Source of the DNA: Elusimicrobiota bacterium | Lineage (GTDB): Bacteria > Elusimicrobiota > UBA8919 | Direction: 5' to 3' | DNA: 64,000 nucleotides | Assembly (NCBI GenBank): GCA_016928195.1 | Contig: JAFGLF010000018.1 | Location: 30,731 to 94,730, forward strand | Part shown: positions 33,917 to 44,616 of the stretch, piece after piece | Layout of the letters: every line of letters starts with the position of its first letter | Position numbering within the stretch: the stretch's first letter is position 1 | Program-made: the position numbers and the translations under genes | The notes under the pieces: generated by a model | Told to the model about the DNA's origin: nothing | The model's input: the letters and a program-made list of their open reading frames with translations, nothing else | The model's database searches: none

Positions 33917-34828
33917 TTATTCCATTCCTTCAATAAAATTGCGTATACATTCAGGCAGATCCGGTGAATAACCACCCTCTAAAACAGCAAAACGTGCGAT
34001 ACCAAGCGATTTAGCTGCTGTTCCTATTTTTTTATAACTATCCTTAGTAAGTTTTATATTTGTAATCGGGTCTTTTATATATGTATCAAATCCTGCGGAA
34101 ATTGTTATAATATCCGGTCCAAATTTTTTTATTTCCGAAAGGACTGTTCCCAGAGTTTTCAAATATTCACCTTCATCAGTTCCGGGTGCAATAGGAAAAT
34201 TTTTACAATTCTCCTTTGAAGTCAATCCTGTTCCGGGATATAGGGGAGACTGATGGATAGATGTAAACAGTACATTTTTATCCCCATAAAAAATTTCCTC
34301 AGTACCGTTGCCGTGATGACAGTCAACATCCAGAATGGCAACTTTCTTCACAAGTTTTTTTGAAAATAGGTATTTTATTGCAATGGCGATATTATTGAAA
34401 TAACAGAAACCTCCCAGCGTACCGCTTTCGGCATGATGTCCGGGTGGACGCATAAGTGAAAATGCCGTCTGCCCGTTTATAGCGGATTCCGAAGCCTGTA
34501 TAGCAGCACCTGCCGATAAGAGTGCATATTTATATATACCTGGAAGTGCCGGAGTATCAGCATCCACAAAATCTTCGGATTTGACCTCTCTAAGTAATTG
34601 TTTTGTATGAACCCTAAGAACATCCTCGTCGGAACACGACACAGCTTCCGTAATCTCATATCCTTTGGATTTTAAATAATTATACGAATCCTTTACTCTC
34701 TGCGGAGATTCAGGATGCCCGGGAGCGTTATACTCCCATGATTTTGGAGATGAAATTATTTTAACCATTTTAATCTTCCCTTGGAAGCCTAAAGCAGCCA
34801 ATATCAAGACAGCCAACATCTTCCTCAT
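33917..34828 (-). CDS. histone deacetylase-family (class II/AcuC-like) amidohydrolase
   Basis: MRPPGHHAE, DVDCHHGNGTEEIF and LEGGY. The first 20 aa look like a signal peptide. An alternative ATG at 34768 would give a cytoplasmic form. Confidence 0.85.
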   Translation of the reverse strand: MRKMLAVLILAALGFQGKIKMVKIISSPKSWEYNAPGHPESPQRVKDSYNYLKSKGYEITEAVSCSDEDVLRVHTKQLLREVKSEDFVDADTPALPGIYKYALLSAGAAIQASESAINGQTAFSLMRPPGHHAESGTLGGFCYFNNIAIAIKYLFSKKLVKKVAILDVDCHHGNGTEEIFYGDKNVLFTSIHQSPLYPGTGLTSKENCKNFPIAPGTDEGEYLKTLGTVLSEIKKFGPDIITISAGFDTYIKDPITNIKLTKDSYKKIGTAAKSLGIARFAVLEGGYSPDLPECIRNFIEGME

Positions 34829-34874
34829 GAATAATTTTTAACTGCGATATTTATATTAAACTTATATATTTCTT

Positions 34875-35591
34875 TTATTTTTCCTTAAAATAAGCATTAA
34901 AATAATCTTCTATTAAAGCTAATTTATTTTTAGCTATTGAAATAGGGACAAAATCAGCATTAGTATTGAGTGCAACCAGTGCATTGACACTGGCATCCTG
35001 GGTTATCGTACTTGAAATTCTTTTACAGAAATTTCTATTGACTATTCTTACTTCCTCGTAAAGTTTAACTAGATTTTTCAGTTCCCAATCCGGAGTTTCA
35101 CCACGTTTATATAAAAAGTATTGAGCAAGTAAATACATAGATATTGCACGATATCTACCTTCTTCCAGCGTTGCAAAAGGCAGGTGAGAACAAACCATAG
35201 GTTTCAACTTTTCCATAATAGGACAGCTGCTTGTAACCATATAAATCCCTAACAGAGAACTTAACCCGACCTGCAGTGCAACATGTTTCATATACTGTCT
35301 TGCCTCGGTTTTAATTACTATATCAACCTCTTCATAAGAGACACGGCTTTTAAATGAGTTAACAAACTCTATAAGATTTACCGCTATAGGGCAATATTTA
35401 TTTTGATTTTCATCCAACGGACAGTTGGGACATTTAAAACATCTCAACTCTGTCCAATCCGGATACGATTCGGGTTTATCGGATATTATACCTAAAGTTT
35501 TTTTATCCAGTTTAATGTTAAATTCTTTTTCCTCACCGTTTTTGAACGTAAACCTATAGCAATAAGAAATCACTTCGTTTGAATCACCCAT
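34875..35591 (-). CDS. hypothetical Cys-rich protein
   Basis: 238-aa ORF with a CFKCPNCP...CPI cluster and further conserved-looking Cys residues. Lies 46 nt upstream of the deacetylase gene. No family recognised. Confidence 0.5.
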   Translation of the reverse strand: MGDSNEVISYCYRFTFKNGEEKEFNIKLDKKTLGIISDKPESYPDWTELRCFKCPNCPLDENQNKYCPIAVNLIEFVNSFKSRVSYEEVDIVIKTEARQYMKHVALQVGLSSLLGIYMVTSSCPIMEKLKPMVCSHLPFATLEEGRYRAISMYLLAQYFLYKRGETPDWELKNLVKLYEEVRIVNRNFCKRISSTITQDASVNALVALNTNADFVPISIAKNKLALIEDYFNAYFKEK

Positions 35592-35688: not shown

Positions 35689-37638
35689 TTAGTCCCAGAA
35701 AAGATCAGCAATCTTATTATTCTCAATAACTCCTATATTAATAATAAGCCAGCCGGTAGGTGCAACAGCCGGTGCCTCCGAAAACTCATGCGGTACATAC
35801 ATTGTGGAGTAATGAATACCGCCGGTTTCCGAACTATGTCTTAAAACCTCCTTGACTACTTTTTCTCCCTTAGATTTATCACCTATACGTAAATATGCAA
35901 GCGATACCCCAAGTGCTCCTTCTGTCCACATCATATTAACATCGTCCCATGATTTTTTTGGATTGCCGGGAAAATAATACTTACCTACTTCATATGTTTC
36001 GTATATGGGTTTTCCCAGATAAGGTTTATACCCAATACCTTTTTCTATTCTGCAGGAATATTTTGCTGCTGTCCTTGCCGCTCTAACAGCTTTTTTCTCG
36101 TGGTTTCTGGAAAGCAGAAAGAGGGAACCCCACGAAGCACAATCAAGCGCCATTACTTCATCAGACTGGGCAGCACTCTGGCCACGGTTGAACTGTCCGG
36201 CTTTTTCATTCCAGCATTGCGCAACAATCCGTTTACCCATTAACTCAGCTGCATCACGATATTTTTGTTTACTTGACAGTTTTCCCAAATCCTTCAGGAA
36301 GAAATACATATCAATGTTATGTTCTATGCTGCACCACGTTACTTCATCCGGAACAAACTGTTCCTCAACCTTGTTGATTTCATGATTCAATTTAAGTACA
36401 TATGTACCTTTGCCCCCGGTAACCAAACCGTATCTTGCATCCTGATTGTCTGTTATTCTGCGTTTCAGCATATTATCGGCAATTAATTCGGCATAACTTA
36501 AATAATTTTGTAGTTCTGTGTTTTTAGAAATTATTTCTGGATCATCAAGCAGGCGTGCCCTCAGATAAAAAACAATAGCCTGTCCTGCCCACGCAGATGC
36601 ACCGGAACGAATAATAGCTCCCCAACTGTCTTCTTTGTTCGGCCAGGTATTATGGGTATTGAATGTGAAAAACAACTCGCCGTCCGTACCGCCCATCCTC
36701 ATTATAGCATCTATAATTTTACTTGCTTGTTCAAACTGGTGTTCTATGGTAAAGGCTATTACTGCAACACCATTATCATATAACGAGGATTTACTGAAAA
36801 TATATTTATAAGCATCTGCTGTTTCCGGAAGCTCGTAACTTAATATAAGATTACGGCGGTCATTTGCCGGAGACTGAACGACATCATTCGGTACCATCTG
36901 CCGGTTAAGCCACTCAATGGACTTTTTTCTTACATTATAGTACGGACTTGAAGGGTTAGGCAATTCCGATACTGATGCTGCGACAGCAGACGGGGCTTGC
37001 CCGGCAGGTTCTATTTCTTCAGCAGAATAATTTGATAACTTATCGATGAAATCCAGTGCATACTCCCTTGCCTGATCTTCAGAGATATCTGTCGCACGGA
37101 CTGCGATACGGAACATAATACAGCCATCGTTCATGATTCGCTTTGAATCACGCCACATAAACCAGTATAAAAGATAATGTTTCCAGTCGCCTTTATATGC
37201 CGTAAAATATTTTGCCTCGAATTTCTTTTCACCGGAAACAATTTGTGTATATCCGCGTTTTTTTACAAGCCAGCTATCGTTTATATAACATACTTCGGGA
37301 GTATGAAAACGGCTTTCTACTATTCCATGAACAGCAATAAAATATATTTTAGCATTTTCGTCAACAGAATGCACGTATGCCCTGAAAAAAACAATATTTT
37401 CATCATCATGTTCCAGTTCATACCCTTCCCAATCTCCTAACTCATAAGGAATATTTCTAATCTTCTCTTTATCCAGCAGATTGGAAGAAACATTAATTTT
37501 ACCCTCGTGCGAGGTTGCAAAATAATACCCCGTGTCAGTAATAAAAGTATGCATCTGTTCTGTCTGTGATAAAGCAGATGAAGTATAAAAGGATATGGCT
37601 AAAATCACAATCAACGGCATACGTAATCTGTGTTTCAC
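35689..37638 (-). CDS. EpsI-family (exosortase-associated) domain fused to a ~430-aa helical-repeat domain
   Basis: Signal peptide. EpsI-like block (IPYELGDWEGYE ... HTPEVCYINDSW ... YWFMW). Then a long C-terminal region with alpha/alpha-toroid-like spacing of W/G/N/D motifs. The GTG start overlaps the exosortase stop (GTGA). Confidence 0.65.
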   Translation of the reverse strand: MKHRLRMPLIVILAISFYTSSALSQTEQMHTFITDTGYYFATSHEGKINVSSNLLDKEKIRNIPYELGDWEGYELEHDDENIVFFRAYVHSVDENAKIYFIAVHGIVESRFHTPEVCYINDSWLVKKRGYTQIVSGEKKFEAKYFTAYKGDWKHYLLYWFMWRDSKRIMNDGCIMFRIAVRATDISEDQAREYALDFIDKLSNYSAEEIEPAGQAPSAVAASVSELPNPSSPYYNVRKKSIEWLNRQMVPNDVVQSPANDRRNLILSYELPETADAYKYIFSKSSLYDNGVAVIAFTIEHQFEQASKIIDAIMRMGGTDGELFFTFNTHNTWPNKEDSWGAIIRSGASAWAGQAIVFYLRARLLDDPEIISKNTELQNYLSYAELIADNMLKRRITDNQDARYGLVTGGKGTYVLKLNHEINKVEEQFVPDEVTWCSIEHNIDMYFFLKDLGKLSSKQKYRDAAELMGKRIVAQCWNEKAGQFNRGQSAAQSDEVMALDCASWGSLFLLSRNHEKKAVRAARTAAKYSCRIEKGIGYKPYLGKPIYETYEVGKYYFPGNPKKSWDDVNMMWTEGALGVSLAYLRIGDKSKGEKVVKEVLRHSSETGGIHYSTMYVPHEFSEAPAVAPTGWLIINIGVIENNKIADLFWD

Positions 37639-38477
37639 GGAATTATAAGCCTCCTTATTTCAGTTCTATCTTTGTATATACGATGAAATATGTGCCATAC
37701 CATAAACATTAGTGTCAATGAAACAATATAGAAAAAGTATCCGGCAAAATTATGCCAGAAACGTATTGCCAAATCCATCCCGCCGGCTTTAGCAATGATA
37801 AAAATACAGACAATTCTCAAAACATTCGTAAAAAAACCCACGGGCAGTGCTAATAAAAGCATGCTGTATGTTATCATAGGTTTGTTTTTAATTATAATTG
37901 CCCAAAGTATTATAATGGTAACAAGTGCAAGAATAGAATTAGCACCGCTGCAATTGATACCTATACTGAATACTACATCCGGCGGAATATATATTTCGAT
38001 ACCATTGACGATAACCGACGGATAAAACAGCTTCAACAGAGAAACCGCAGTTTTTGCTGAAACAAAACTGAAATATCCGGATATCTCATACAGAAAAGGC
38101 AGAGGGAATACGAGTATTATCAATAAAAACGGCAAATTTAAATAATATGTATATTCCTGTGCCAGAAAAGTTTTATTAATCGCAAGACAGCATATCGGAT
38201 ATGCCGTTGCTATTAGATACGGGAACCTGTAATACAATCCTAAAAAGATAAATATACAGGCTGCAACCCAGAATAAAATAACTGATTTAAACTTTAATAC
38301 GATCTTTTTTATTCGGCACCCGTTTATTACAATGAGTATCAGACAGAAAAAAACAATTATAAAACTATGTGTATAAAATGTGTTATGTATCCAGGACTTT
38401 ACCAGCCAATTAAAAATATCACTGAATACAAACCAGTACAATAGGGAAAAAATACCCGTAATAAGAAGATAATGCAT
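37635..38477 (-). CDS. exosortase/archaeosortase-family transpeptidase (minimal 280-aa form)
   Basis: About 8 TM helices. Candidate catalytic Cys in INCSGANS, Arg in NVLRIV and His in FWHNFAG. This matches the Cys/Arg/His layout of exosortases. An EpsI-domain gene is adjacent. Confidence 0.7.
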   Translation of the reverse strand: MHYLLITGIFSLLYWFVFSDIFNWLVKSWIHNTFYTHSFIIVFFCLILIVINGCRIKKIVLKFKSVILFWVAACIFIFLGLYYRFPYLIATAYPICCLAINKTFLAQEYTYYLNLPFLLIILVFPLPFLYEISGYFSFVSAKTAVSLLKLFYPSVIVNGIEIYIPPDVVFSIGINCSGANSILALVTIIILWAIIIKNKPMITYSMLLLALPVGFFTNVLRIVCIFIIAKAGGMDLAIRFWHNFAGYFFYIVSLTLMFMVWHIFHRIYKDRTEIRRLIIP

Positions 38478-38496: not shown

Positions 38497-38910
38497 TTAT
38501 TGCTGACCGTCCGAAGCGTCTTTATCGCAGCAGCTTTTCTTTTTTGTAAGGAAATAACCTGCTACTCCGATAGCGCCAAGTCCGACTAAAACTGCAGCAG
38601 CCATAGGAATACCCGGAACTGAAGGGCCTCTATCTCTGTCTCTTCCTCTACCTCCGCCCCTTCCCCGGCCACTGCCTCTTCCCCGGTCACTGCCTCTTCC
38701 CCGGCCACTGCCTCTTCCCCGGTCTTCGTCTCTTTCTCTCGGAGCAGCATAAACATTTTGAACATTATTTATTTTGGTAAATTGGTTCAAAAGACTTATA
38801 TTTCCTAAACATTCCTGATGTCCCGACGAAGAATCCTGTCTCACATCCGGGATGGAAAACACGGCACATATGAACACTGCAATTATAATACTAACCAGTG
38901 TCTTTCTCAT
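38497..38910 (-). CDS. secreted Arg-Gly-repeat protein with C-terminal sorting-signal-like tail
   Basis: Signal peptide. RGRGSGRGRGSDRGRGSGRGRGGGRGRDRDRG. Then PSVPGIP, a 19-aa hydrophobic helix, KKK and a 12-aa tail. Start set to ATG 38910 (poly-G SD); the track starts at GTG 38919. Confidence 0.6.
   Translation of the reverse strand: MRKTLVSIIIAVFICAVFSIPDVRQDSSSGHQECLGNISLLNQFTKINNVQNVYAAPRERDEDRGRGSGRGRGSDRGRGSGRGRGGGRGRDRDRGPSVPGIPMAAAVLVGLGAIGVAGYFLTKKKSCCDKDASDGQQ
38663..38724. repeat. 18-bp tandem repeat inside the RG-repeat gene
   Basis: CCCCGG[CT]CACTGCCTCTT x3 plus a partial fourth copy. Encodes the RGRGS[GD] units. Confidence 0.9.
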
Positions 38911-39076
38911 AAAAATCACCCCCCCATAACTACGATTTAAACTAATAAAAACGCAGATTCAAACGGATTTACATCTGTCTGAATCCGTGACTACATCTGT
39001 TTTCATCTGTGTTTCCCATCTGTCTGCATCTGCGCCTTCATCTGTTTGCATCTGCACTTTCATCTGTCCGAATCGT
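38911..39076. repeat. phased CATCTG/CAGATG word array
   Basis: CATCTG at 38972, 38994, 39004, 39017, 39027, 39039, 39049 and 39061. Spacings are 22, 10, 13, 10, 12, 10 and 12 nt. The left part (GCAGATTCAAACGGATT ... GTCTGAATCCGTGACT) is shared with 51513-51603. Confidence 0.9.
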
Positions 39077-39946
39077 CTATTCCTCAAATTCGAATACTAC
39101 TGTTGTAGGATATATCCACTGAAGCAGTGAATCAAAAGAAAGTATAAGCCCATGTTCTTCTATACCAAATAATTTATGGTCAATCGCAAATGAGTCTACA
39201 TCCCAGTAAACCCCGGAAGAACCATCCCAGTCCTCTTTCCCGCTTATGCTCTGACCGTTTATAAGATTTGTACTTGCATTTCCTTTAAGTCCGTGACCTC
39301 CTATAATAGTCAGCCGGACAGGAACAAACGAAGTCCCTTTTTCCAAAATCTTTATATCATATATTTCTCCGGGTCTTAACATAAGAAATTCGCTTTTTAT
39401 TTGTATCCGCTTTTTATTTGTATCCTCCGGGTTCCTGTAAACTACTATAACGGCATATCCTCCCACTGAACAAAATTCAGCACCTTTTTTCTCAAAAACA
39501 TCACTTCGCAGATCTTTTATTATATATTTTCCCTTTCCATTATATACAGAAGTTATATCGGCAAAACAGGAATATAATATACCGGAGGAAGCAGATTTAT
39601 AAACCTTATCGGCCTCAATCTTTTTTGGCCCATTTCCGGGGCTTTGTATTGTTATATTTTTAAAATCATCCGATTTTTTCTTAACCTCTCCAGACCACAC
39701 AAGTATAACCTTATCAATATTATCAAAACTTCCAATATGAAATTTACTCTGGCTTAAGACCTGTCCGGAGCCGGATATCATGCTTTTACCGTCAACCCAT
39801 ACACTCAATCCCAAATCCTCTTTCTCATAATATGTGTCCATCTGCAGCCCGCAGTAAAGTGCCTGAAAAAAACCAAGAATAATAATACATAAGATAATAT
39901 TTCTAAAACTGATATTCTGTATAAAATTTATAATAGACATCTTCAT
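39077..39946 (-). CDS. hypothetical membrane-anchored/secreted beta-rich protein
   Basis: N-terminal hydrophobic helix followed by about 250 aa of beta-rich sequence. ATG 39946 has an AGGGGGG SD. Overlaps the end of the porin gene by 44 nt. Confidence 0.5.
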   Translation of the reverse strand: MKMSIINFIQNISFRNIILCIIILGFFQALYCGLQMDTYYEKEDLGLSVWVDGKSMISGSGQVLSQSKFHIGSFDNIDKVILVWSGEVKKKSDDFKNITIQSPGNGPKKIEADKVYKSASSGILYSCFADITSVYNGKGKYIIKDLRSDVFEKKGAEFCSVGGYAVIVVYRNPEDTNKKRIQIKSEFLMLRPGEIYDIKILEKGTSFVPVRLTIIGGHGLKGNASTNLINGQSISGKEDWDGSSGVYWDVDSFAIDHKLFGIEEHGLILSFDSLLQWIYPTTVVFEFEE

Positions 39947-42077
39947 CCCTGTCCCCCCTGTGTTCAAAATCACAAGTTATATCTGCACATAGTTTTATCA
40001 TATCAGTAATATTATAATAAGTAAAAACATTTAAACTATGGGTGCTGGTATCGTAAAGATTATCACTTTCCAGCGAACAAGTAACAGAATAATTAACTTT
40101 TGCAAACTGATTTTTATAATTTGTTTTAATGGTATGTATCGCTTCCGAATCATTTGTTAAATGACGGAAATAATAGCCGAGCTCACATTGTTTTAAAAAA
40201 GGTAACACATATTTAACACCGGCATTATAATCCTTACGGCTGTAAGTACTGTAGTAATTTTTATAGAACACTGACAACAGAAAACTTAAGTTTTCTGTTG
40301 TATCATGCCCTACAGATAATCCGGCATTTTTTAAATATCCTATTTCCAGGTTATTCTCCATGAGCATAGGATACACGGGTTCACTGTCATAATTTACACT
40401 AAACACCCACTTATTTAAATCATATTGAGTAAGTATAAATCCGAAAAAACCCGTTTCATCGTCACGAAGCATATAAACCTCACTGTCGTTATCACGATAT
40501 AAACCCCTAATCAACCTTCCGGTAAGTTTAATTCTTTTACCAAACTGCCTGCTTAGTAACACAGAATATTCATCACCGATTAAACCGTAGTTTCTATCGG
40601 CATCTTCCAGTTCTTTCTCAGTAATATGTTTATAGCGGAATCCGGCGGAAAATATCGATGAAAATGATATATCAACCGCCTGAGAATATTCATGACGTAC
40701 TGTTTTCTCGGCAAACTCCGATAATTCCGAATCATAATTTTTAAGTCCAGCATAATCAAATCTTGTTTCAAATCTGGGTTTTTTCAAATTTTCCAGTTTC
40801 TCCAGTTCTTCTGATGCTTCTTTATTAAGAGGATTTATTTCAAGAACTTTTTTAAACTGCCGGCGTGATTCGGACCAGTTCCCGTCATAAAAATATGTCC
40901 GTCCGAGCCCTATATATGCTTCCTGGTTATACGGATCAATACGGATTGCCTCCTTATAAAGCTTTATTGATTCTGCAATACGCAGTTTCCAGCTATAAAC
41001 CCTTCCGAGAGTTATAAGATTTTCAATATCGTTATCCTGTACAGTTAATGCTTTCTGTAGTGTTGTAATGGCTTCATCTATCCTGTCTGTATAACTATAC
41101 AGAAGTCCCAAACGTGCATCTATCTGCGGTTTATCGCCTCCGAGATCCCTGGCTTTTTCATACCATTTGATCGCTTGTTTATATTTATCCTGCATTTCAT
41201 ATAAAAGTGCTATTTCCATAACTGCAGAAACATTGTTTTTATCCCGTTCAAGAATCTTTTTCTGTATAGCTATTCCTTCTTCATAACGTTCAGCCCATCT
41301 ATATATACGCGCCAGTGTTTTCGCAGCTTCCAAATCCCCGGGATCTATTTTCAAAGATCTTTCAAAATATGAAACTGCCTCGTTATAATCCCCTCTCCAG
41401 CTCAGTACTTTTCCAAGTCCGTTCAAAACAGCGGTATTACTTGGATACTCCCGGAGCATTTCTTTATACCGGGCAACAGCACCATCATAGTCGCCCTGGG
41501 CTGCAGTCATATCAACCAGAGAAATACGGGCTTTTTTATTACCAGGGTCAATCTCCAAAATCTTTGAATACATAGCCCGGGCTGAAGAATAATCCATATC
41601 CCACATAAAAATACGCGCTTTGATTTCATATGCATCTATATATTTAGGATTATTTTTTATTACCTCATCGCATAATACCAGCGATTCTGCACTCTTATCC
41701 TGCCAGCTCAAAACACGTGCTTTTGCAAGTTTGGCATCATCATATTGGGGTGTAACGGAAAGAACCTTATCGAAATACCTGATAGATTCATCATACTTCT
41801 CAGTCCAGGAAAATAAAATACCTATCTGAAAAAGAATATCGGAATTCTCCGGCTGTAACAATTCGGCTTTCCTAAACCATATTATTGATTCATCAAACAT
41901 TTTTTTCTCTTTATAGTGTTTTGCAATCTGAATTATATATTCAACAGCTTCAGGATTTTTTTTATGCATTTTCATATAGTAATCTAAATTCAGTTCGATT
42001 TTCGAAGTATCTTGAGCAGGAGAGAGAGAGTATATGAAAATAAAAATCAAAACAACTATAATAATGTTTCTTTTCAT
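39903..42077 (-). CDS. TPR-repeat outer-membrane polysaccharide export porin (PgaA/NfrA-like architecture)
   Basis: Signal peptide, about 430 aa of tandem TPRs, then about 290 aa of alternating beta-strand pattern. The protein ends in YTEYQF, an aromatic OMP C-terminus. Confidence 0.7.
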   Translation of the reverse strand: MKRNIIIVVLIFIFIYSLSPAQDTSKIELNLDYYMKMHKKNPEAVEYIIQIAKHYKEKKMFDESIIWFRKAELLQPENSDILFQIGILFSWTEKYDESIRYFDKVLSVTPQYDDAKLAKARVLSWQDKSAESLVLCDEVIKNNPKYIDAYEIKARIFMWDMDYSSARAMYSKILEIDPGNKKARISLVDMTAAQGDYDGAVARYKEMLREYPSNTAVLNGLGKVLSWRGDYNEAVSYFERSLKIDPGDLEAAKTLARIYRWAERYEEGIAIQKKILERDKNNVSAVMEIALLYEMQDKYKQAIKWYEKARDLGGDKPQIDARLGLLYSYTDRIDEAITTLQKALTVQDNDIENLITLGRVYSWKLRIAESIKLYKEAIRIDPYNQEAYIGLGRTYFYDGNWSESRRQFKKVLEINPLNKEASEELEKLENLKKPRFETRFDYAGLKNYDSELSEFAEKTVRHEYSQAVDISFSSIFSAGFRYKHITEKELEDADRNYGLIGDEYSVLLSRQFGKRIKLTGRLIRGLYRDNDSEVYMLRDDETGFFGFILTQYDLNKWVFSVNYDSEPVYPMLMENNLEIGYLKNAGLSVGHDTTENLSFLLSVFYKNYYSTYSRKDYNAGVKYVLPFLKQCELGYYFRHLTNDSEAIHTIKTNYKNQFAKVNYSVTCSLESDNLYDTSTHSLNVFTYYNITDMIKLCADITCDFEHRGDRDEDVYYKFYTEYQF

Positions 42078-42090
42078 AAGTAAAATCTAA

Positions 42091-43494
42091 TTATCCGATT
42101 CCTGTTCTTTCCATTTTACCCCAGGATTTGCGCCCTAGCATCCAATCGTAGAGACCCTTTGCCCTTACAACCGCCATATACTGGCGGTAGCCGAAATTTT
42201 CAAGTATTGCTGCAGACATAAGCTTCAATAAATCCCTCACGCGTTTATATCTGTGATATGTAACCTCTTCCATCAACAATGCAAGCAGTGACAGTACTAA
42301 TCCGAAAATAACTGCAAGCAGAAAAAATGCTATAAAAGACGTCAGGCTTACTGCTTTCATACAGAACCCTAAAATAAATGTCACATAACCGAATAATTCA
42401 ATTATAGGACTTATAAACTCAATAAAAAAGAAATAAGGCATGGCTATTAGCCCGACATTTTTATACCTTGGGTTACACAGCATACCTATATGCATAAAAA
42501 GACTTTCTGCCAGACCGCGCTGCCACCTGTTACGCTGACGGCTGAGTGTTTTTATGTTTTCAGGAACTTCCGTCCAGCAAACAGTATCCGGCAAGAAATA
42601 AATACCGCAAGGTTTTTTATCTCTTCTAAGGTAGTGATGCAGCCGTACCACCAGTTCCATATCCTCTCCCACAATTCCTTTCTTATAACCGCCCACATCA
42701 ATAACAGATTGTTTCTTAAATAAACCGAATGCTCCGGAAATGACCAGATTACAATCCAGCATACTAAGACCCATACGGCCGGACAAAAAAGCACGGAAAT
42801 ACTCAACCACCTGAAAATTAACAAGCATTTTATTGGAAGTTTTTACATCAGGAACTTCCTTCCCTCTATATTTACATCCATTTGCAACACGGATTAAACC
42901 TCCGGTAGCAACAATGTTGGCGTAGGATTCCATAAAAGGATGCACCACTCTTAACAGAGAACTTTGTTCTAAAACCGAATCTGCATCAATACAGCAGAAA
43001 AGGGGATATGTACTTACATTTATACCTGCATTCAACGAATCCGCTTTACCTCCGTTCTCTTTATCAACAACTATAAGATTTTTAACGGTCTGGGAACGGT
43101 AAATAGCACGGATTTTCTCTGAGGCTAACTGCGGATTATATTTTCTGGAAGTTTTTACAAGTTTAAATTCTTCTTTTAACACATCCATTGTTCTGTCTTT
43201 TGAACCGTCGTTTATTACTATAACCTCAAACTGACCATATTGCAGTTCCAGCAGCGATTTAACACTTGCAACAATACTTTTCTCCTCGTTATACCCCGGT
43301 GCCATAACTGAAACGGGTGGAGTGATTCTTGCTTTTAAAATCTCATTGGTAGTGGCAAACTTTGTGCGTATTTGGTGCGAAATCAGACCTTTAAAAGAAA
43401 GAAGAAAAATAAAAATATAGAATATGCTGACTATAAAAAAGTAAGCAAGAATTAAAAGACTGATAACCTGCATAAAATTATGCATACTCGTCAA
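42091..43494 (-). CDS. processive family-2 glycosyltransferase (PgaC/IcaA/cellulose-synthase-like)
   Basis: N-terminal TM helix. PGYNEE, INDGSKDRT, DADS, GEDMEL and QRNRWQRG motifs. C-terminal TM helices. Confidence 0.88.
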   Translation of the reverse strand: MTSMHNFMQVISLLILAYFFIVSIFYIFIFLLSFKGLISHQIRTKFATTNEILKARITPPVSVMAPGYNEEKSIVASVKSLLELQYGQFEVIVINDGSKDRTMDVLKEEFKLVKTSRKYNPQLASEKIRAIYRSQTVKNLIVVDKENGGKADSLNAGINVSTYPLFCCIDADSVLEQSSLLRVVHPFMESYANIVATGGLIRVANGCKYRGKEVPDVKTSNKMLVNFQVVEYFRAFLSGRMGLSMLDCNLVISGAFGLFKKQSVIDVGGYKKGIVGEDMELVVRLHHYLRRDKKPCGIYFLPDTVCWTEVPENIKTLSRQRNRWQRGLAESLFMHIGMLCNPRYKNVGLIAMPYFFFIEFISPIIELFGYVTFILGFCMKAVSLTSFIAFFLLAVIFGLVLSLLALLMEEVTYHRYKRVRDLLKLMSAAILENFGYRQYMAVVRAKGLYDWMLGRKSWGKMERTGIG

Positions 43495-44554
43495 GCCATT
43501 GTGCAGCCATATCCCTTACAGACTCGGACCGGCTTTCCTTTTCTAATAAAAGAAGGGCTGATTTACCTTTTTCGCCCAATTTTGTCAGAGCTTCACCCGC
43601 ATTTCTGCGTACCCACCATTTACGGTCATTCATTGCCTCATTCAGCGGACCAACGGCCTCCGGTAATCCTATGAGTCCGAGGCCACGTGCAGACTGCGCA
43701 CGAACTTCCCATAAAGAATCTTTCAGACCGTCTATAAGACATTGCATACCGGAAGAATCAGCAATCGTTCCGAGTGCTTTATATGCCGCTACGCGAACTT
43801 CTTTGTTTTCATCCTGAACAGTTTTATTTATTATTTCCGGAACAGATTGATGGGCCTGTATCTCGCCAAGTAAATGAAGTGAAAGAATACGTACGGCAGA
43901 ATCTGTATGTTCCAAGGCTTTCGTCAAAACAGGTATTGCTTTTTCTCCCAACTCGAAAACCGTAGAAGAAAGGCGCATACCGGCAAGACGGGATGTATTT
44001 ACAAGAGCTTCCATACTCGGCACAATAATATCCGGATCACCTATTCTACCCAGCGACCATGCGGCCAGAAGTCTAACCTCAAGAACTTTGTCTTTCAGAA
44101 CTCTAAGAAGAAACGGCTTTGACCGCTGAGAACGAAGCTGTCCGAGACACCGGGCAGCTTCGGCACGTGTCCACCAGAAAAATGCTTTCAACCGTTTTAA
44201 GTCCAGGTCAACAAAACCCAGTTTTTCATATGCTTCCAAAATTATTTCTATATTTCTTCTTGTTTCGCCGAAACTTCTGAAAACAATAAGTTTTTGTACA
44301 ATAGGCCTGCTGAAAAAGCTTAACGGCCGGAAAGCAGAAAGTTTCGAAATATCCGCAGTTTTAAGATAGTCCTCAAACACGGGCCTCATCCAGCCCAACA
44401 TTTTATTACTATATCTGTCCCATAACATATTACCCAACTTAACCATTACAAGCACAAAAGTCAAAAAACTAACCAACGACAGCAAAACTATGGCTGCATT
44501 GGCGATATATATATGCAGGGTTCTTACAAAATTACTGAATAACTCAATGTTCAT
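43478..44554 (-). CDS. membrane-anchored HEAT-repeat protein
   Basis: One N-terminal TM helix. At least 5 PBS-lyase-type HEAT repeats (EVRLLAAWSLGRIGD, AVRILSLHLLGEI, EVRVAAYKALGTI, EVRAQSARGLGLIG, WVRRNAGEALTKLG). Overlaps the GT2 start by 17 nt. Confidence 0.75.
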   Translation of the reverse strand: MNIELFSNFVRTLHIYIANAAIVLLSLVSFLTFVLVMVKLGNMLWDRYSNKMLGWMRPVFEDYLKTADISKLSAFRPLSFFSRPIVQKLIVFRSFGETRRNIEIILEAYEKLGFVDLDLKRLKAFFWWTRAEAARCLGQLRSQRSKPFLLRVLKDKVLEVRLLAAWSLGRIGDPDIIVPSMEALVNTSRLAGMRLSSTVFELGEKAIPVLTKALEHTDSAVRILSLHLLGEIQAHQSVPEIINKTVQDENKEVRVAAYKALGTIADSSGMQCLIDGLKDSLWEVRAQSARGLGLIGLPEAVGPLNEAMNDRKWWVRRNAGEALTKLGEKGKSALLLLEKESRSESVRDMAAQWLDEYA

Positions 44555-44588: not shown

Positions 44589-44616
44589 ATTATATCAATT
44601 ATGAACCTTTTTTCAA
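44589..44616 (-). promoter_or_regulatory. candidate sigma70-type promoter for the HEAT-GT2-porin operon
   Basis: On the minus strand: TTGAAA (44616-44611), a 16-nt spacer, then TATAAT (44594-44589). This is about 35 nt upstream of the ATG at 44554. Lies in the only clean AT-rich spacer upstream of the locus. Confidence 0.35.

Follow-up and report, generated by a model that had tools for sequence, protein, structure and literature searches.

Does the small, Arg-Gly-rich open reading frame (ORF) directly upstream of an exosortase gene encode the substrate of that enzyme, and is it the only one? The question is raised by a 64,000-nucleotide stretch of DNA from an Elusimicrobiota bacterium (lineage UBA8919; assembly GCA_016928195.1, contig JAFGLF010000018.1, positions 30,731 to 94,730 of the forward strand), referred to here as the window. 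An earlier sequence-only reading had described this ORF as a secreted RG/RGG-repeat protein with a C-terminal tail of VPGIP, a transmembrane (TM) helix and KKK, and had proposed it as the likely sole exosortase substrate. We consider it probable that exosortase and small protein form a dedicated, one-to-one pair of enzyme and cargo and that the cargo is processed within an envelope/exopolysaccharide module. At the level of sequence comparison, the related loci establish that the gene is real and translated, that its tail is conserved and homologous to the PEP-CTERM signal, and that it stands in one-to-one adjacency with the exosortase gene.

From the N-terminus, the small protein is made up of a signal peptide, a spacer, an RG tract, the motif GPSVPGIP, a TM helix, the basic cluster TKKK and a Cys-rich extension (Table 1). 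The signal peptide, RG string, motif, 19-residue helix, KKK and 12-residue tail reported earlier were all found as described, and the distance from the stop codon to the exosortase ATG (38477) is exactly the 19 nt given before. The reported "~60-aa spacer" had to be redefined: about 60 residues in total do precede the RG string, but the spacer itself is 36 residues long and is followed by an acidic lead-in of 8 residues. The charged tract contains 14 Arg, 13 Gly and 7 Asp or Glu residues (net charge +7), with the RG string spanning residues 64-95. At the DNA level, the RG tract is an 18-nt tandem repeat of 3.7 copies with 93% matches (38656-38722). A G-rich, Shine-Dalgarno-like sequence, GGGGGGGTGA, is located 5 nt before the ATG of the small gene.

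The family of small proteins was gathered via the neighbors of exosortase relatives on fetched contigs. Relatives of this exosortase are rare, with about ten in a database of 5.8 billion proteins, and the named records among their contigs are metagenome-assembled genomes (MAGs) labelled Nitrospiraceae or Thermodesulfovibrionia. The ingroup comprises 14 loci whose exosortases belong to one rare clade together with that of the window (42-74% identity); those with upstream sequence provided 12 distinct complete and 2 partial small proteins. The outgroup comprises 6 more distant loci, which were found by searching 1.84 billion representatives with the C-terminal domain of the EpsI fusion protein encoded next to the exosortase. 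The closest sampled relatives of the window are the Logan contig L003 and the NCBI MAG L001. Word-indexed homolog searches with the small protein returned only the query itself, and an alignment query with the tail alone scored no candidates; such searches are uninformative here due to the shortness and low complexity of the query.

In all 14 ingroup and all 6 outgroup loci with upstream sequence, one small, intact ORF lies directly upstream of the exosortase gene, and it is never absent or frameshifted in a related locus. Furthermore, all nine indels between related small genes are multiples of three, including those between genes that are 98% identical. The chance of nine in-frame indels out of nine is about 5e-5; the tract must accordingly be translated, and it is changing fast in length. 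Three conserved blocks stand out in the alignment: the signal peptide, the spacer with its (V/L)YA end, and the tail. A basic n-region and a 15-residue h-region were recognized by inspection (not with a dedicated predictor) in all family members. At the end of the spacer, Y54 and A55 are invariant and V53 is present in at least 90% of the members.

The tail follows the consensus D-K/R-G-K/R-G-P-S-[VLI]-P-[AG]-[IL]-P-M, then xxxx-LGLGAxG-xx-Y and the basic cluster. More specifically, D-x-x-x-G-P-S-x-P-x-x-P-M and the later G-L-G-A-x-G and Y are invariant, and G95, P96, S97, P99, P102 and M103 are unchanged across 10 clade members. The earlier interpretation of this region as a tripartite sorting signal is therefore borne out by a tail that is conserved in all homologous loci. 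An invariant motif, a signal peptide and adjacency to the exosortase gene are among the marks by which dedicated sorting signals are recognized (10.1101/2023.06.07.544157), and these three are found here. The unusually long sequence after the basic cluster, which had also been pointed out, is present in the window (SCCDKDASDGQQ) but is otherwise shared only with L003 (GCCCSKDASDSQQ, L003 58-99); it is predicted to be cytoplasmic. An extension of 11 residues after the basic cluster also occurs in the outgroup locus L025 (DELEKKKDDS), unrelated to the Cys-rich one.

To count potential substrates, a hidden Markov model (HMM) of the tail was run on all stop-to-stop segments of the window and the related loci, 247 kb from 23 sources in total. 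Exactly one match per locus was obtained, with scores of 47-87 bits, while the next best segments remained below 12 bits. A regular-expression scan found no other real ORF with a comparable tail in the 64-kb window. The exosortase is likewise present once per locus and is the only one in the window; neither another ORF with such a tail nor a second exosortase occurs in the window or in the 247 kb of sampled loci. A protein with a tail of this kind is encoded beside the exosortase in every locus with upstream sequence, in agreement with the pairing proposed by the sequence-only reading. This one-to-one adjacency fits the rule that a dedicated system has a single target encoded beside its processing enzyme (10.1101/2023.06.07.544157), and the comparison of loci thus gives good support to the small protein as dedicated partner of the adjacent exosortase. 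It is likely to be the sole substrate genome-wide.

The motif GPSVPGIP was previously said not to be PEP. This is literally true for the window, as Pro-Glu-Pro is absent and the clade as a whole reads GPS[VLI]P[AG][IL]P with no Glu. Three tails and two complete proteins of the clade were searched with the PEP-CTERM model TIGR02595 (cut-off 16 bits), and none of them matched at E <= 10; the sub-threshold matches of the clade tails are to LPXTG-type anchors, with generic TM-plus-basic likeness only. The TM-plus-basic-cluster layout of TIGR02595 is nevertheless present, with a 19-residue helix and TKKK, after which the proteins of the window and L003 run 12-13 residues further. The outgroup tails read PPTVPEPS, PPTAPELP, PPTTPEPA, PPTVSEVP, PPGAPELP and PGDPQVDEL. 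Among these, the protein of L022 passes TIGR02595 with 17.4 bits for the whole protein and 21.9 bits for the isolated tail, and the isolated tail of L018 scores 18 bits. In the joint alignment, the position of the PEP Glu is occupied by Gly in the window and by Ala in the Nitrospirota loci. Because outgroup partners read PPTVPEP or PPTTPEP and one of them passes TIGR02595, the motif descends from PEP-CTERM; as judged from these alignments, the clade motif is a Glu-less descendant that diverged together with its exosortase.

The enzyme itself is assigned to the exosortases by PF09721 (107.3 bits; cut-off 25.7) and TIGR04178 (47.8 bits; cut-off 23), and its presumed catalytic triad of C176, R221 and H242 is invariant in the alignment. 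Among the named subfamilies (XrtA, B, C, D, T, V and W, and CrtA) there is none whose cut-off it reaches, XrtA being the best at 83.9 bits against 208. An HMM of the clade gives 390-460 bits for its members and at most 139 bits for the outgroup exosortases, and identity between ingroup and outgroup enzymes is 18-26%. A comparison for specificity-determining residues provided three weak candidate positions only, derived from very few sequences.

Between the spacer and the conserved tail, the ingroup proteins carry a hypervariable tract of 24-45 residues whose chemistry differs from locus to locus. The RG/RGG repeat, after which the sequence-only reading named the protein, is not what the family conserves and is confined to the window; elsewhere the tract consists of KKGG, KKP, poly-Lys (up to 14 consecutive residues) or K/R-D mixtures. 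Ingroup tracts are always net positive (+7 to +22), and the alignments indicate that charge rather than sequence is conserved within the clade. The outgroup linkers are acidic K/D (net -5), R/D polyampholyte (net -4) or uncharged Gly-Gln, with net charges of -5, -4 and -1 among them, and the description of the domain as polycationic thus holds within the exosortase clade but does not extend beyond it. According to codon counts, the shift from Lys in the K/G tracts of L001 and L023 to Arg in the R/G tract of the window could have arisen through single AAA-to-AGA transitions. The small genes of L005 (4675-5031) and L009 (909-1292) contain runs of 14 Lys with mixed AAA and AAG codons; Lys stretches of this length might cause ribosomes to stall or slip, with possible consequences for how strongly these orthologs are expressed.

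The position of VYA also differs between groups. In outgroup locus L025, PVYA closes a canonical signal peptide of 23 residues, whereas in the clade of the window VYA is found 36 residues past the h-region, immediately before the tract. A second cleavage at VYA is conceivable from this arrangement.

Table 1. Features of the small gene and its cassette in the window (window coordinates).
Feature	Position	Strand	Basis or remark
EpsI-like N-terminal domain fused to ~430-aa domain X	35689..37638	minus	family models; 4-nt overlap with exosortase gene
Exosortase, 280 aa, unnamed clade	37635..38477	minus	family models; C176, R221, H242 conserved
Small substrate gene (probable exosortase cargo), 137 aa	38497..38910 (including stop)	minus	ORF read from ATG; orthologs aligned
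Signal-peptide n/h region, residues 1-19, MRKTLVSIIIAVFICAVFS	38854..38910	minus	sequence reading; conserved in alignment A3
Spacer, residues 20-55, VYA at its end	38746..38853	minus	alignment
Charged low-complexity tract, residues 56-94, hypervariable	38629..38745	minus	composition and alignment
Signature motif GPSVPGIP, residues 95-102	38605..38628	minus	aligned with P-P-T-V-P-E-P of PEP-CTERM relatives
TM helix MAAAVLVGLGAIGVAGYFL, residues 103-121, 19 aa, hydrophobic	38548..38604	minus	sequence reading and alignment
Basic cluster TKKK, residues 122-125, presumed cytoplasmic	38536..38547	minus	positive-inside rule as for PEP-CTERM (PMC1569441)
Cys-rich extension after basic cluster, SCCDKDASDGQQ, residues 126-137	38500..38535	minus	sequence reading
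p298, conserved secreted ~290-aa protein, weakly DUF3344-like	39077..39946	minus	synteny and profile search
TPR protein with C-terminal ~300-aa putative outer-membrane beta-barrel, ends ...YQF	39903..42077	minus	family models and pattern analysis
Processive GT2 synthase, PgaC/IcaA-like below cut-off	42091..43494	minus	family models
Membrane-anchored HEAT-repeat protein, paired with GT2	43478..44554	minus	family models

The small gene and its exosortase are embedded in a conserved cassette. All ingroup loci share a five-gene core in the order TPR/barrel protein, p298, small protein, exosortase and EpsI-X. Outgroup loci retain core components, with p298 homologs at 29-37% and TPR proteins at 21-33% identity, and L024 carries a full set of HEAT, GT2, p29x, small protein, exosortase and EpsI-X genes. 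The GT2 and HEAT genes adjoin the cassette in three lineages, represented by the window, L001 and the outgroup pair L024/L025. In L001 they lie on the other side of the cassette and on the opposite strand, and the L024/L025 GT2 is 41% identical to that of the window over its full length. The best sigma-70-like promoter site of the region is located at 44589-44616, just upstream of the HEAT gene, a position consistent with a seven-gene operon. Because of this partner set, including the adjacent GT2 and HEAT genes in three lineages, the cassette is best described as a synthase-type envelope/exopolysaccharide module. Membership in the PgaABCD system was considered and rejected, as the match to PgaC reaches 145 bits against 422 and that to PgaA 69 against 367 (TPRs only), and neither PgaB nor PgaD is found among the neighbors.

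The EpsI-X fusion is the best-conserved protein of the cassette (58-81% identity). Its EpsI part scores 25.4 bits in the window against a cut-off of 26.1 (PF11984/TIGR02914), and all nine orthologs match, with a best E of 1e-8; an EpsI domain beside an exosortase, or fused to one, is the expected arrangement. Domain X (35692-36996 in the window) has 577 representative relatives, which occur as stand-alone proteins of secreted size, as EpsI fusions and as Xrt-EpsI-X triple fusions; these triple fusions tie the domain to exosortase function. It also forms the N-terminal part of RHS/YD-repeat toxins and of a beta-helix protein (examples P0016, P0017, P0100, P0111 and P0064). A weak match to the GH94 catalytic domain (E = 6e-4) is its only functional hint. 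DUF3344 (PF11824) matches weakly in 8 of 10 p298 orthologs, with a best E of 0.041, and not in p298 of the window.

The assignment of a putative barrel to the TPR protein is based on its last 300 residues, which contain 13 alternating 9-mers compared with 6.8 +/- 2.1 in shuffled sequence, 17% aromatic residues and a Y-x-F at the very end; searches of this region against Pfam and PDB gave no family match. A Slam-like translocon, which would combine N-terminal TPRs with a C-terminal DUF560 barrel, is not supported, since TPR_Slam, one among many TPR matches, is the only Slam-related one and none of the Pfam barrel families matches the C-terminal 300 residues. In L002, the full-length TPR gene is preceded directly by a 189-residue ORF (L002 5951-6520) that is 52% identical to part of the window TPR protein and resembles a partial duplication or gene fragment. 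On the other flank of the window cassette, immediately downstream and on the same strand, genes for histone-deacetylase-family and DUF6901 proteins are found (33917-35591); they are probably outside the system because no related locus has a homolog.

We propose the following sequence of events, in which export, anchoring, cleavage and a possible transfer are inferred from knowledge of the family (PMC1569441; 10.1101/2023.06.07.544157), whereas the fate and target of the cationic peptide are speculative. Sec would export the small protein, and the C-terminal helix would keep it in the inner membrane; KKK and the Cys-rich tail would face the cytoplasm, and the disordered Arg-Gly tract would extend into the periplasm. 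The exosortase would then recognize GPSVPGIP at the membrane face and cut off the anchor, and by analogy with sortase and archaeosortase the new C-terminus could be transferred to an acceptor. The mature product would be a short, structureless and strongly cationic peptide, whose repeat length and chemistry may evolve fast through slippage that preserves the frame, with the net charge staying positive throughout the clade. It would work alongside four to six conserved partners, namely the TPR/beta-barrel, DUF3344-like and EpsI-X proteins and, in three lineages, GT2 and HEAT. Judged from composition and partners, the cargo is most likely a charge-bearing surface or matrix component.

Several observations weigh against this proposal. 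Curated models of sorting signals fail to recognize the clade tail at E <= 10, whether three isolated tails or two whole proteins are used as queries. The stretch of 12 residues beyond the basic cluster is atypical for sorting signals. No GT2 or HEAT genes flank the cassette in the Nitrospirota loci, one of which is surrounded by housekeeping genes on a complete chromosome. PDB sequences searched with profiles returned nothing credible for p298, the EpsI fusion, the barrel or a 32-member domain-X profile, and single-sequence AF2 models of p298 and the EpsI fusion were unusable (pLDDT 37 and 34). As outgroup linkers are not positive, a charge-based function may be specific to the clade. With regard to the term "sole substrate", the count covers 64 kb of a contig of about 170 kb together with the sampled loci.

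The cationic tract could instead tether the cell electrostatically to an anionic exopolysaccharide made by the neighboring synthase, to extracellular DNA or to the outer membrane, as had been suggested before. Net positive charge persists in the clade despite full turnover of the tract sequence, a homologous GT2 and HEAT pair is adjacent in three separate lineages, and the TPR/beta-barrel protein is always present. Yet the nearest curated family of the GT2 is the poly-N-acetylglucosamine (PNAG) synthase PgaC/IcaA, below its cut-off, whose polymer is not anionic; PNAG is a neutral or cationic polymer. Moreover, outgroup cassettes with the same partners have linkers of other charge, and anion tethering therefore cannot be the ancestral role. 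On this comparative evidence, we regard tethering of anionic exopolysaccharide as possible but not favored. Another reading, which appears unlikely to us, would have the cassette produce a genetically encoded polyelectrolyte coat, with the exosortase as a transpeptidase and the small protein as its sole donor: the new C-terminus would be joined to the GT2 product or an envelope lipid, and a second cut at VYA would leave a poly-Arg/Lys surface conjugate of about 40 residues whose charge and length are rapidly retuned by in-frame slippage. If true, this would amount to a "polylysine" made on ribosomes, by which bacteria living in sediment would adhere to minerals or polymers of negative surface charge.

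It is a rather improbable alternative that the protein stays uncleaved and spans the inner membrane permanently as a bitopic protein, perhaps with a regulatory or structural role within the exosortase/EpsI complex, the motif being a protein-protein contact. Evidence of processing is indirect throughout, the extensions after the basic cluster in the window, L003 and L025 are odd for a tail that is discarded, and the GLGAxG of the TM segment is itself strongly conserved. However, the tripartite layout is placed precisely at the membrane face and shows homology to genuine PEP-CTERM tails, the exosortase retains its full catalytic triad, one-to-one operonic pairing is a recognized mark of dedicated sorting systems, and a hypervariable, low-complexity periplasmic part would be odd for a stable subunit. 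Even less probable is a precursor of an exported cationic antimicrobial or signaling peptide, with the exosortase as maturation protease and the TPR/beta-barrel protein as exporter. The extra VYA cut would leave a product of about 40 residues, cationic and hypervariable, whose gene is linked to that of a dedicated outer-membrane protein. The cassette, however, has no immunity gene, ABC exporter or modification enzyme, outgroup peptides are acidic or Gly-Gln, the tracts show no amphipathic or hydrophobic character, and linkage to a synthase points to the envelope matrix. Finally, the ORF could be a spurious reading frame over a GC-rich tandem repeat, given that part of it is the 18-nt repeat and word-based protein searches found no homologs. 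This explanation is effectively refuted by the comparison of loci, in which the ORF is intact and syntenic throughout, signal peptide, spacer and tail are conserved, every indel is in frame and a Shine-Dalgarno-like site precedes the start.

Dedicated cargo processing by this exosortase can be placed relative to known systems. With PEP-CTERM/exosortase XrtA/EpsH (Haft 2006, PMC1569441), the locus shares a polytopic exosortase with the Cys/Arg/His triad and the association with EpsI-like and polysaccharide genes. In contrast to PEP-CTERM, Gly or Ala stands in place of the near-invariant Glu (GPSVPGIP and GPSLPALP), and one substrate per exosortase is found in the sequence sampled here, whereas PEP-CTERM genomes have a median of 8. 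As a class, PEP-CTERM proteins are poor in basic residues and Cys and enriched in Thr, Ser and Asn (PMC1569441), and the Arg/Lys-rich cargo is compositionally atypical by this measure. The JDVT-CTERM/myxosortase system (10.1101/2023.06.07.544157) resembles ours in its single, co-operonic target beside the enzyme, its sporadic taxonomic distribution and its few partner genes. There, the enzyme is a protease of the CPBP/Rce1 type rather than an exosortase; the signature motif described here has no invariant Cys, and the cargo is almost wholly a hypervariable, charged low-complexity tract.

Synthase-dependent exopolysaccharide systems (PgaABCD for PNAG; Bcs, Alg and Pel) share with the cassette a membrane GT2 of the processive, PgaC/IcaA-related kind, together with a protein of the outer membrane that has periplasmic TPRs and a C-terminal barrel-like domain, in an operon-like layout of seven genes. 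Pga models nevertheless score far below cut-off, no equivalent of PgaB or PgaD was found, and the barrel matches no known family. We know of no exosortase sorting pair among the components of the characterized Pga, Bcs, Alg and Pel systems. Small sortase-dependent LPXTG proteins (EF2685/EF0750, NF053819) follow the same plan of about 100 residues with a signal peptide, low complexity and a C-terminal signal, and NF053819-type models give sub-threshold matches of 14-16 bits. Their enzyme is unrelated, their envelope is of another type and the LPXTG motif is absent here, which reduces the likeness to the generic TM-plus-basic arrangement. With eukaryotic RG/RGG RNA-binding and condensate proteins, only the composition of a stretch of about 32 residues is held in common. 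Homology was rejected, as the small protein is secreted or membrane-anchored and has no RNA-binding domains, and its orthologs use Lys instead of Arg-Gly; due to these Lys-rich orthologs, the likeness is compositional convergence.

Neither this cassette nor a dedicated exosortase cargo of cationic character is described in the literature searched. Models in NCBIfam (release 20) and Pfam leave the tail, the exosortase clade, p298, the barrel and domain X uncovered. The arrangement is, in concept, a dedicated sorting system of the PEP-CTERM type. A 2023 preprint calls it unresolved whether exosortases and archaeosortases are one-step transpeptidases (10.1101/2023.06.07.544157). Typical PEP-CTERM systems have many large, heterogeneous substrates. 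One enzyme with one substrate of about 100-140 residues that has no folded domain, in a compact cassette, could serve as a minimal model of exosortase chemistry. Since such a cassette could be moved to a heterologous host, the cleavage site and any C-terminal adduct would be measurable by intact mass spectrometry. Furthermore, the locus defines an unnamed exosortase clade, a Glu-less PEP-CTERM variant that current annotation models miss, as well as a widespread domain X fused to exosortases. It also provides a clear case of selection on charge, not sequence, in a disordered extracytoplasmic region of bacteria.

In addition, some minor observations were made in and around the cassette. In outgroup locus L018, two genes for Rce1-like/CPBP intramembrane proteases (122-1777) lie just upstream of the cassette; this is the protease family of the myxosortases, and two sorting-protease families thus stand side by side in L018. 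In the window, the 166-nt spacer between p298 and the small gene contains an array of CATCTG (CAGATG on the coding strand), with 8 exact units in 95 nt (38972-39068) at alternating spacings of 10 and 12 nt, equivalent to a 22-nt unit repeated 4.4 times. The array is specific to the window, because p298 and the small gene abut or overlap in other loci, and may serve to bind a regulator or form part of an internal promoter region. Across the 64-kb window, CATCTG occurs 55 times, with 18.8 copies expected. No tRNA or Rfam family was detected in the window, its GC content is 36.7%, and nearly all of its ORFs of at least 150 residues are encoded on the minus strand.

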